Of a stretch of 64,000 nt of DNA, positions 40,301 to 43,590 are shown in pieces (position 1 is the stretch's first letter; each line of letters opens with the position of its first letter). Origin of the DNA: Dictyostelium discoideum (Eukaryota); contig CM000151.3 of the NCBI GenBank assembly GCA_000004695.1, positions 3,776,001-3,840,000 on the forward strand. The letters run 5' to 3'. The position numbers were made by a program, and so were the translations under genes. The notes under the pieces are model-generated. The model was not told the DNA's origin, did not search any database, and saw only the letters and a list, made by a program, of their open reading frames with translations.

Positions 40301-40995
40301 TTAATATAATAATTGTTTGCAAGGGTTGTCATAGAAACATATCATTCTAACGAACTTGTCTGATTGAGAAGCTGATTTTACAAATTCTTCACGAGAAATT
40401 TTTATGGAAGTGATAGAATAAACAAAATCAATTGCTTCACTTGTTGTGTAACCCATTGCACTGCTACATACAACTACAATATTAACTAATTTTTCAATTT
40501 CTCCAGCTTCAAGATAACCACTTTTATCACTATCGAATAAATCAAATAAAAATCCTAATTTATCTGTAGTTGGTGCTCTTGTCATCATATAAAGAGCTGT
40601 AATAAACTCTTTAACATCAATCACACCATTCTTTTTTTTTTTTTTTTTATTATTATTTTTTTTAAAATTAATAAGTTTTAAAATATATATATACATATTT
40701 TTAAATTAATAAGTTTTAAAAAACATATATTGGTTTAAATAATTTAATAATATTATAAATTACTTACACCATCAGAATCGAATAATTTGAACATTCTAAC
40801 CATTGATGCTTCATCCCATTCGTTGAAACGGATTCTGAAGAATTTGATAAATTCCTCTTGTGAAAAACCAGCTTTTTTGTCTGATGCAGCAGCAACTTTG
40901 AAATCTTTTGTTAATTGTTCAATATCACCAGAGGTATATTTGGTTTTTTTCATTATTTCATCCTTTTCTTCTTTGGATAGTTTTGAATTTCCCAT
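40301..40995 (-). CDS. N-myristoylated EF-hand calcium-binding protein, NCS/recoverin-like, 185 aa; join(40768..40995,40301..40630).
   Basis: MGNSKLSK myristoylation consensus. EF-hand loops DSDGNGVIDVKEF and DSDKSGYLEAGEI. GTAAGT donor at 40767 and acceptor (A)nAG at 40631, both phase 0. Confidence 0.85.
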
Positions 40996-41434: not shown

Positions 41435-42020
41435 TTATTCTTGAATAGCGATATCAGAGCATTGATAAAAATCTGGCTCTGGTTCTCCTGCATTATTACT
41501 TATATATCTAACTCTTAATACACAACTTTTGCAAGTTTGTGTTGGAAGGGTAACCTATTTTTAGATTTATTTTAATTAGTTAATTTGAAATGAAAAAAAA
41601 AAATAAAAATAAAAATAAAAATAAATATAATAGTAAACTTACTGAAACACTATAATTGGTTTGAGTAACCATATCCCAAGCATTGAAATCATCAATTGTT
41701 GGACTAAGTACAATATAGTCACCATTATCGCCATCGTATGAGAGTGAAACATCTAAATAACCAGGATTTGGTTTATACCAATGATTGTAATTTTGTTGGA
41801 AGAAAACTTGGATGGTAGATTCAGGGCTATATGATTTAACTGGTGCTCCAGTTGTTGTATTACCACAATTACTACTAACTCTATAACATGCGTTGTCACC
41901 TGGTTGAATTGGAACTCCCCAATTTGGTTCTCTTTGTGGTGGATCAAATAAACATAGATGTGCTAAAGCAAAACTATTTAACTGTAAAATTATAATAATA
42001 GCAACAATATATTTTATCAT
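41435..42020 (-). CDS. Secreted 165-aa protein with a mature N-terminal His, LPMO(AA10)-like; join(41643..42020,41435..41554).
   Basis: Signal peptide MIKYIVAIIIILQLNSFALA, with cleavage predicted before HLCLFDPPQREPNWGV (compare AA10 H-G-x-V-x-x-P-x-S-R). An internal His sits in NHWYKPNPGY. The C-terminal exon ends DFYQCSDIAIQE, resembling the AA10 FYxCxDV terminus. GTAAGT donor at 41642 and acceptor AAAAATAG at 41555 are both phase 0. The ORF-track start at 42161 lies in a poly-T run. Confidence 0.65.
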
Positions 42021-42301
42021 TTTGAACAAATAATAAATAAAAAATAAAATAACTTTTTTTTTTAGTTTTTTTTTTTTTTCAGAACACAACAGAAATTTAA
42101 AAAAAAAAAAAATAAAAAAAAAAAATGAAATGGTTTTGGAAAAATCATTCGAATGCATCATTCGAATAATATCAAAAAAAAAAAATCAAAAAAAATCAAA
42201 AAAAATCAAAAAACCACTGTTTGAAAAAAAACTAAAAAACTAAAAAAAAAAAAAAAACTTTTTTTTATCATAAAACCATATACAAAAAAAAAGTATATAG
42301 A

Positions 42302-42844
42302 ATGATTAAATATTCAATTTTATTAATTTTATTCATTGGTATCCAAAGCATTTTATCATCATACAATTGTTGTGTCCCAAGTCAATGGCAAGGTTCATCA
42401 TTGAGCTATGATGATTCTGGTAGAGAGTTCACAAAGAATTATTATTATGACGCAGATAAATTATTAGTTAGAATCGATATAATTTATTCAGATGGTAGTT
42501 TTAATCAAAGTACATACAGTAGTTATGCAAGTTTAACTCAAACAGGTACAGAATGGGTAATGAATAATTTGGATGGCACTTGTTACCAAACTGGACCAGA
42601 TTTTTGGAATGCTCAATGTTTTGGTGATAAATATGGTGTTCCATTCTCTAGTTCCACCAACAAAATCAATACTTTCTCTAACCCATCCAATGGAATCACT
42701 GTTATTACCGATATATATTGTTTACCAGTTTCAATTACCAATAAACTTGCAAACCTCCAATTTAAATTTTTCAACACTCAAGCTCATGTTTCTGATGAAT
42801 CTGTGTTTAGTGCCCCACCAGCTTGTAGCAGCAGCAATAATTAA
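42302..42844 (+). CDS. Ependymin-related secreted protein (EPDR-like), 180 aa, single exon. It is transcribed divergently from the LPMO-like gene.
   Basis: Signal peptide MIKYSILLILFIGIQSILS. The mature start CCVPSQWQGSSLSYDDSG matches ependymin C-x-A-P-x-x-W-E-G-R…LSYDG. The C-terminus FSAPPACSS matches ependymin VFTPPSTC. Confidence 0.65.
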   Translation: MIKYSILLILFIGIQSILSSYNCCVPSQWQGSSLSYDDSGREFTKNYYYDADKLLVRIDIIYSDGSFNQSTYSSYASLTQTGTEWVMNNLDGTCYQTGPDFWNAQCFGDKYGVPFSSSTNKINTFSNPSNGITVITDIYCLPVSITNKLANLQFKFFNTQAHVSDESVFSAPPACSSSNN

Positions 42845-43334: not shown

Positions 43335-43590
43335 ATGAAAGAATTAAAATTATTATTTTTATTAATAATTGTTGTATTACAATATTGTATGGTAGATGGC
43401 GCAGTAATAAATTTTGTACCAGTTCTATCAGACTCAAGATAGTAGTGTTGAACAACCAAATTCATCTTCTGCATCATCCTCTTTAGAGGGCTTAAATTGT
43501 ACTGAACCATATCAATATCAATCAAAATGTTATGAAATTGCTTCCGAAGCTTATACTATAAGTTATTGTTATGATCCAAATTATAATTAA
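43335..43590 (+). pseudogene. Small secreted Cys-rich protein ORF interrupted by a +1 frameshift or stop (possible pseudogene or sequencing indel).
   Basis: MKELKLLFLLIIVVLQYCMVDGAVINFVPVLSDSR* in frame 0. It continues in frame +1 as QDSSVEQPNSSSASSSLEGLNCTEPYQYQSKCYEIASEAYTISYCYDPNYN*. No GT..AG pair of plausible length reconciles the two frames. Confidence 0.3.

Follow-up and report, generated by a model that had tools for sequence, protein, structure and literature searches.

A divergent gene pair of Dictyostelium discoideum encoding an LPMO-like and an ependymin-related protein, and its single-chain counterparts in other eukaryotes

Proteins that hold copper in a histidine brace, the lytic polysaccharide monooxygenases (LPMOs) among them, are turning up in roles far outside the breakdown of biomass, and not all of them are enzymes. 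Ependymins and ependymin-related proteins (EPDRs) have been known for decades and a crystal structure has been solved, with the biochemical function of the EPDRs still open. Here, we describe a gene pair that brings the two kinds of protein together and that offers a testable lead on this function. It lies in a 64-kb, AT-rich stretch of chromosome 2 of Dictyostelium discoideum (the window, to whose full length all coordinates refer), and consists of DDB_G0274355, which encodes an LPMO-like protein on the minus strand, and DDB_G0274779, which encodes an EPDR on the plus strand. Taken as a whole, the reading that we favor, and hold to be probable rather than secure, is that the two genes are the halves of one conserved secreted (or lumenal) copper-domain/EPDR module.

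Among the copper proteins closest to this locus, families AA10 and AA15 are both covered by the Pfam family LPMO_10 (PF03067). The copper site of the X325/Bim1 proteins consists of the brace plus an aspartate on a glycine-rich loop as a fourth equatorial ligand, and Bim1 carries a glycosylphosphatidylinositol (GPI) anchor. On the other side, EPDR1 adopts a LolA-like fold in which a hydrophobic groove is formed, and it binds vesicles of anionic lipid and of ganglioside; EPDRs have been proposed as carriers of lipids and secreted signalling proteins. In the survey of McDougall et al. (2018), cysteines at alignment positions 23, 94 and 186 are conserved, and a 'profile 2' adds positions 24, 107 and 148, with a proline two residues past Cys148.

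Gene order in Dictyostelia and fusions in other eukaryotes

The head-to-head pair recurs in six other dictyostelid loci, one each in T. lacteum, C. fasciculata, H. album and A. subglobosum and two in D. purpureum, with an intergenic distance of 272-672 bp from start to start. Each species has its own set of neighbouring genes, and the 6 kb on each side of the pair in the window show no protein homology with the other pair loci. In D. purpureum two whole divergent pairs lie on different scaffolds (L003 and L006), and the pair has therefore been duplicated as a unit; identity with the respective D. discoideum protein is 77% and 69% for the two LPMO-like paralogues and 63% and 56% for the two EPDRs. 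Matches to the LPMO-like protein in tblastn break near residue 127, the site of the D. discoideum intron, in five of the six loci. At the sixth, L003, the match comes in one piece, with extra columns consistent with read-through of a short in-frame intron.

Outside the Dictyostelia, the two domains are often found in one chain. Among 181 collected relatives of the LPMO-like domain, 62 also carry an EPDR domain, and all 62 are built in the same order: signal peptide, His1 domain, flexible linker (median 32 aa, rich in A, S, P, E and T) and EPDR. Such an order would be expected of a catalytic domain with a brace, because its His1 must stay free. With a hidden Markov model for which the seven dictyostelid EPDRs were the sole input, the fused EPDR domains score as high as 66 bits, and mammalian EPDR1 scores 31 bits. 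Named fusions include AMSG_07381 of Thecamonas trahens (396 aa) and a transcript of Entosiphon sulcatum, which belong to eukaryotic groups very distant from Amoebozoa. Since the fusions are single open reading frames (ORFs) in many independent sources, they are unlikely to be artefacts of assembly or gene calling. On a metagenome contig, one fused gene could be reconstructed in full; a single uninterrupted exon encodes its LPMO-like C-terminus, its linker and its EPDR. A third architecture occurs in 42 relatives, in which the His1 LPMO-like domain is followed by an unrelated C-terminal region of ~350-380 aa, for a total of 470-573 aa (P0105, P0118, P0121 and P0202 among them; the carriers include an annelid, Owenia fusiformis, and a protist, Ancoracysta twista); this region gives no Pfam match above noise and no sequence match in the PDB.

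Because the pair is conserved in all dictyostelid species examined and the domains are fused in distant eukaryotes, a functional coupling of the LPMO-like protein with the EPDR is very probable. A preliminary description of the locus, drawn up from the DNA sequence, had proposed an extracellular module on the basis of short motifs in the two proteins, and the conserved pair and the single-chain fusions support that idea. Gene order and the 62 fusions of identical order are two independent genomic lines, and they tie one clade of EPDRs to one uncharacterised clade of LPMO-like proteins. Each gene alone is of a known kind, the EPDR half being published (see below) and the LPMO-like half annotated automatically; what is new is the conserved pairing and the widespread fusion, that is, known parts in a new architecture. 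For Thecamonas, the EPDR listed by McDougall et al. is a different one that stands alone, and the LPMO-like/EPDR fusion is mentioned in neither of the EPDR surveys. Among open-access papers and bioRxiv preprints, we found none that joins ependymin with LPMO or polysaccharide monooxygenase, and nothing relevant on Dictyostelium and LPMOs or on AA15 and amoebae. Both domains lie near or below the Pfam cut-offs, which may explain why the architecture went unnoticed.

How would such a module work? One half would be DDB_G0274355, a compact LPMO-superfamily protein of 145 aa in its mature form, in which signal-peptide cleavage would expose His1; this residue, His60 (His80 of the precursor) and a phenylalanine at the axial position would together make up a copper-binding histidine brace, carried by a beta-sandwich like that of AA15. 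The other half would be DDB_G0274779, an EPDR with a putative LolA-like fold and a hydrophobic ligand groove as in EPDR1. In Dictyostelia the halves come from separate genes, each with a signal peptide of its own, transcribed divergently from a short shared intergenic region, while in many other eukaryotes both domains lie within one chain, with the EPDR in the place where modular LPMOs carry a substrate-binding module. The EPDR part might bind or present the target, or else tether the pair to a lipid or glycan surface, and the copper domain would perform oxidative chemistry on the target so bound. Given the groove of EPDR1 and its binding to anionic lipid and ganglioside vesicles, the EPDR half may bind a hydrophobic or lipid-linked target, or may serve as the tether.

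The two proteins and their genes

The features of the locus are as follows.

41643..42020, minus strand: exon 1 of DDB_G0274355, residues 1-126, with the start codon at 42020 (from the ORF and splice sites)
42020..41961, minus strand: predicted signal peptide of DDB_G0274355, residues 1-20
41958..41960, minus strand: codon of His21, predicted mature residue 1 and first brace histidine (after an A-L-A site; conservation)
41781..41783, minus strand: codon of His80 (mature His60) in the motif FQQNYNHW, candidate second brace histidine (conservation, model and alignment)
41555..41642, minus strand: intron of DDB_G0274355, 88 nt, GTAAGT...TAG, whose excision connects the frame to the conserved C-terminus
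41435..41554, minus strand: exon 2 of DDB_G0274355, residues 127-165 and the stop, carrying CKSCVLRVRYISNN and DFYQCSDIAI
41468..41470, minus strand: codon of Phe155, axial position (alignment with the tyrosine of TdAA15A)
42021..42301, unstranded: divergent intergenic region of 281 bp between the head-to-head ATGs, presumed bidirectional promoter
42144..42153 and 42157..42166, read on the minus strand: tandem TTCGAATGAT TGC TTCGAATGAT in the intergenic region
42302..42844, plus strand: DDB_G0274779, EPDR of 180 aa, a single exon with a 543-nt ORF (from the ORF and a match to a published sequence)

The product of DDB_G0274355 has 165 aa, is identical to D. discoideum XP_643891.1, and goes in UniProt by the name 'Chitin-binding type-4 domain-containing protein'. 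It reads MIKYIVAIIIILQLNSFALA up to the predicted cleavage point and HLCLFDPPQREPNWGV...NHWYKPNPGY...DFYQCSDIAIQE beyond it; the C-terminal motif is encoded in exon 2 and is therefore visible only after removal of the intron. Every motif that the preliminary description quoted from the two proteins is present in the translations; the distance of 280 bp that it gave between the start codons comes to 281 bases when counted. The window contains no paralogue of either gene outside the pair.

Assignment of the minus protein to the LPMO superfamily, suggested earlier from motifs, is borne out by a comparison with Pfam LPMO_10, in which DDB_G0274355 narrowly passes the cut-off (27.3 bits against 23, E 6.8e-6), the alignment covering only the C-terminal two-thirds (residues 55-161 against profile positions 77-183). 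Of 36 relatives, 22 match the same profile at E < 0.01. Orthologues are present in every dictyostelid genome examined and in one amoebozoan transcriptome. Sequence searches against solved structures, whether with the single sequence, with profiles of two alignments (A1 and A3) or with a fused relative, gave no significant match for the LPMO-like protein; the last 45 residues align with the AA10 enzyme AsLPMO10B (...FYNCSDIAF) at a non-significant E of 0.04.

The family has the hallmarks of a histidine brace at the level of sequence, since a conserved histidine follows directly on a presequence of 13-42 aa (median 19) in all 147 relatives with a complete N-terminus; the last residue of the presequence (-1) is always A, G, S or C, and position -3 holds a small or uncharged residue. 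The cleavage site before His21 is placed by the -3/-1 rule together with this conservation, and the earlier proposal that the histidine becomes mature residue 1 is thereby supported. Residues invariant across ten dictyostelid and related sequences include His21, Cys23, Gln29-Arg30, F-Q-Q-N-x-N-H-W (with His80), Phe155, D-M-V-x-Q-T-N, R-V-R-Y-x-x-N-N and F-x-Q-C-x-D-I. In the wider alignment of 36 family sequences (A3), His80 never varies, and at least 90% of the sequences keep His21 and Phe155.

The fold was approached by AlphaFold2 modelling. A first model, built from the ten dictyostelid and related sequences, was dropped, with a pLDDT of 65.7 and Foldseek matches to generic immunoglobulin-like folds that placed AA10 only at rank 18. 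A profile search gave 52 relatives of the LPMO-like domain, and the second model, for which 36 of them were taken, reaches a pLDDT of 88.9 and a pTM of 0.83. It shows the immunoglobulin-like beta-sandwich of LPMO topology for which the preliminary description had proposed to look. Foldseek matches it to the AA15 enzyme TdAA15A (5msz) at E 2e-5, and in the structure comparison AA15 is the closest neighbour, with a clearly higher Z and 27% identity. In the family profile, C-x-x-C-V-L-R-V-R-Y and F-Y-Q-C-A-D-I-A-I align with C-T-N-C-V-L-Q-W-F-W and E-Y-R-N-C-A-D-I-A-I of TdAA15A. Phe155 falls opposite the tyrosine of the EEYRNCADIAI motif, which we take to be the axial copper-site residue. His80 stands three residues past the strand 69-77 of the model and falls within the part that is placed against the His86/His91 stretch of TdAA15A in a profile alignment that is not significant. 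The most conserved motifs (FQQNxNHW, D-F-x-A-x-D-M-V-T-Q-T-N and Y-I-S-N-N) appear, by the strand order of the model, to lie at the His-brace end of the sandwich, and this would fit a surface with a function better than a metal site alone.

Which family of the superfamily does the protein belong to? The preliminary description had named AA10; the superfamily stands, and AA10 as the specific family is rejected by the structure comparison, in which AA15 is nearer. The fold is nearest AA15, the Pfam matches of the relatives are split between LPMO_10 and BIM1-like (PF20238), and neither a GPI-type tail nor a strictly conserved aspartate of the X325 kind was found (see below). For these reasons, we treat DDB_G0274355 as a member of a distinct compact clade between AA15 and X325. 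The clade is sizeable: an exhaustive search, counted in representatives of clusters at 50% identity, gave 1068 at E <= 1e-3 and 164 at E <= 1e-30.

The plus protein was also named correctly at the outset as ependymin-related. Against Pfam Ependymin (PF00811) the outcome is divided, DDB_G0274779 reaching an E of 1.7e-4 but, at 22.2 bits, missing the gathering cut-off of 32.3, with only the C-terminal 46 residues aligned; its orthologue P0011 carries a precomputed PF00811 match. The identification is carried instead by a profile match to EPDR1, by the cysteines and by an identical published sequence. A profile of the seven dictyostelid orthologues, searched against solved structures, finds only EPDR1 with significance (6jld, 6jla, 6e7o and 6jl9, E 1.5e-6 to 1e-5) and over the full length (residues 22-176 against 16-186), the next match outside EPDR1 having an E of 0.2. 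A search with the single sequence pairs residues 23-178 with Xenopus EPDR1 at E 5e-4. Orthologues occur throughout the Dictyostelia. Cys23, Cys24, Cys94, Cys106, Cys139 (followed by Leu-Pro141) and Cys175 occupy alignment positions 23, 24, 94, 107, 148 (with Pro150) and 186, which is the clade-2 'profile 2' of McDougall et al. (2018); four of them align with the two disulfides conserved in EPDR1, and the remainder are the clade-2 pair. Ddis_DDB0308242 in that survey is the exact 180-aa sequence of DDB_G0274779, and the EPDR half of the finding is therefore already published. The protein has a signal-like hydrophobic N-terminus, MIKYSILLILFIGIQSILSS, continues with ...YNCCVPSQWQGSSLSYDDSG and ends in ...VFSAPPACSSSNN; its mature N-terminus probably lies 2-3 residues upstream of the CC.

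Two side observations concern this half. The AX4 reference model of DDB_G0274779 has 222 aa, is named 'Transmembrane protein' and is spliced after Ser167, from a donor GTGTTT at 42803 to an exon at 43423..43590, whereby the EPDR C-terminus VFSAPPAC with Cys175 is lost. The unspliced 180-aa ORF is the form conserved in orthologues and is also that of newer assemblies and of McDougall et al. 2018, and the AX4 model looks wrong. Separately, Pfam PF25544 (Ependymin_amoebozoa) does not match DDB_G0274779 and matches the LPMO-like/EPDR fusion P0153 weakly (E 0.005); since DDB_G0274779 falls outside it, Amoebozoa hold at least two distinct EPDR-type lineages.

Within the intergenic region, the tandem TTCGAATGAT is a candidate shared regulatory element of the pair. 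The window holds two copies of TTCGAATGAT, both of them here, with 0.22 expected, and 2 of 100 shuffles reach two copies. The related TTCGAAGGAT and TTCGAAGATT are present in the intergenic regions of both D. purpureum pairs. No promoter motif common to all the dictyostelid pair intergenic regions was found, only TTCGAA[G/T]GAT-like elements in D. discoideum and D. purpureum.

Beyond the pair, the region 43335..43590 begins with a short ORF that has a signal-peptide-like start (MKELKLLFLLIIVVLQYCMVDG...) and stops after ~35 codons, followed in a different frame by a cysteine-rich ORF (...NCTEPYQYQSKCYEIASEAYTISYCYDPNYN); it may be a gene for a small secreted peptide with an unusual junction or a frameshift. 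The upstream neighbour, at 40301..40995 on the minus strand, is an intron-containing gene for an EF-hand protein of neuronal-calcium-sensor type (MGNSKLSKEEKDEI...) and has no counterpart beside the pair in other dictyostelids.

Oxidation, copper handling or ligand binding

If the two proteins belong together, the next question is what the copper domain does. We consider an oxidative, enzymatic role somewhat more likely than not. Several observations weigh against the module as we have drawn it. The divergent orientation of the genes is unlike the outcome of a simple gene fission. In two molluscs, Gigantopelta and Ostrea, the 10 kb around a single-domain relative contain no EPDR gene, and so the family includes members in which the coupling does not hold; in Rotaria, the end of the contig falls within the gene. 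Among the open-access papers and bioRxiv preprints searched, none names DDB_G0274355 or DDB_G0274779. The similarity of the LPMO-like protein to solved LPMOs is not significant by sequence alone, the profile search reaching 5msz at an E of 0.26. A glutamate or glutamine two residues before the axial position is typical of AA9 and of cellulose-active AA10, and an acidic or amide residue is seen there in the alignment of the AA15 enzyme TdAA15A; it is absent from DDB_G0274355 and not conserved in the family, its place being taken by Pro153 in D. discoideum and by Ala or Asn in relatives. Finally, the LPMO-like domain is as small as the X325/Bim1 proteins, which bind copper without cleaving polysaccharides, and many relatives match BIM1-like across the whole domain, some of them above the cut-off.

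The last of these points introduces the rival that survives best, copper handling of the X325/Bim1 type, in which the His-brace protein would bind copper and hand it over (in uptake, buffering or delivery, for example in endosomes or phagosomes) with nothing oxidised, and the EPDR would tether it to membranes or carry something else. Of the 36 family members, 19 match BIM1-like, with a best E of 1.1e-8 and a few scores just above the cut-off of 27, and the matches often begin at profile position 1-2, thus taking in His1. The lack of a conserved Glu/Gln before the axial residue fits this proposal, as do the hydrophobic tails or transmembrane segments at the C-terminus of a few distant relatives (P0056 and P0065). 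DDB_G0274355 itself, however, gives no match to PF20238 at E up to 10 and has no GPI-type tail, its end ...CSDIAIQE being without a hydrophobic stretch. A strictly conserved aspartate of the X325 Gly-rich-loop kind was not found in the family alignment: in relatives the candidate Asp42 (P-G-D) may be N, A, S or E, and the invariant Asp111 is not in a Gly-rich loop. Moreover, AA15, the nearest family in structure, consists of active enzymes, and the dominant multi-domain layout of a His1 domain, a linker and a binding-type domain mirrors enzymes that combine an LPMO with a carbohydrate-binding module (CBM) and not Bim1. On this evidence we consider mere copper handling unlikely.

A non-catalytic binding pair fares worse. 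Here the LPMO-like domain would be a 'CBM33-like' carbohydrate binder and the EPDR the functional carrier of a hydrophobic ligand or signal, and fusion would serve only to bring this carrier to a matrix of glycans, for instance the cellulose sheath or the stalk. The roles proposed for EPDRs agree with this, and LPMO domains were first described as chitin-binding, as the UniProt name of the minus product recalls. It is difficult to see, however, why a pure binder would need a free histidine, and His1 is kept in 147 of 147 relatives and the LPMO-like domain stands first in 62 of 62 fusions, while His80 does not vary and at least 90% of the family have Phe155; we hold this explanation to be improbable. 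Weakest of all is adjacency without functional meaning, two unrelated secreted proteins facing each other across a compact intergenic region, which the compact D. discoideum genome with its many close divergent neighbours might suggest, but which we reject as very improbable, since the pair is kept in all six other loci with differing flanks and was duplicated as a unit, and 62 independent single chains join the same domains.

Returning to the copper-domain/EPDR module, one may ask what its target might be. Cellulose, which the preliminary description had in mind, is one substrate candidate, without specific support. In a bolder form of the proposal, the module would be an ancient eukaryotic two-domain copper oxidase in which the EPDR presents a lipid-linked or hydrophobic target to the brace; this we regard as doubtful. 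Candidate targets would be a glycolipid, a bacterial lipoprotein or the acyl chains of lipopolysaccharide within the phagosome of a bacteria-eating cell, or a signal molecule of hydrophobic nature. The named carriers include free-living phagotrophic protists (dictyostelids, Physarum, Thecamonas and Entosiphon), which would fit a role in the processing of prey envelopes. If the bolder proposal were true, it would give an LPMO-type enzyme acting on a non-classical substrate and a first biochemical role for clade-2 ependymins. Two small genes sharing a 281-bp intergenic region in a tractable organism make cheap and concrete experiments feasible, and a sizeable family between AA15 and X325 should be useful for asking what makes a copper chelator an oxidase.

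Comparison with described systems

Among the described copper proteins, TdAA15A of family AA15 is eukaryotic and secreted, has His1 after a signal peptide and falls under Pfam LPMO_10, all as in DDB_G0274355; the two share the motifs C-x-x-C-V-L and [FY]-x-x-C-A-D-I-A-I, and their axial positions align. DDB_G0274355 differs in being ~50 residues shorter (145 as against 195), in the place of the second histidine (mature 60 as against 91), in having Phe where TdAA15A has Tyr at the axial position, and in missing the E-E pair before it. In addition, the sequence similarity to AA15 is not significant (E 0.26), and an EPDR partner or fusion has not been described for AA15. The X325/Bim1 proteins (LaX325, 6ibh) share the His-brace residues and the PF20238 matches of 19 of the 36 relatives across the domain, whereas DDB_G0274355 is without the PF20238 match, the GPI-type tail and a clearly conserved Gly-rich-loop aspartate. 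X325 has been described from fungi, and the LPMO-like family considered here occurs in Amoebozoa, Apusozoa, Euglenozoa and animals.

Likeness to AA10 is confined to details: the N-terminal spacing H-x5-P-x2-R, as in HGYVESPASR of CBP21, and the C-terminal FYxCxDI, which aligns with ...FYNCSDIAF of AsLPMO10B (7okr). Phe is the axial residue in chitin-active AA10, as it is in DDB_G0274355. Nevertheless, there is no significant sequence match to AA10 (E >= 0.04), a family that is mainly bacterial and viral.

DDB_G0274779 resembles EPDR1/MERP in its signal peptide, its length of ~180 aa (within a range of ~180-220) and its full-length profile match. What sets it apart from known EPDRs is the link with a His-brace protein, which takes the form of gene order in Dictyostelia and of fusion elsewhere. 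The fused chains themselves are laid out like the LPMO-linker-CBM enzymes, with the His1 domain at the N-terminus, then a low-complexity linker and then a binding module, except that the appended module is a putative LolA-fold binder of lipid or hydrophobic ligands and not a known CBM. EPDRs fused to an enzyme domain are already known from the EPDR+cathepsin proteins, including CfaD of D. discoideum itself. In those proteins the EPDR is N-terminal, whereas in the LPMO-like/EPDR fusions it is always C-terminal.

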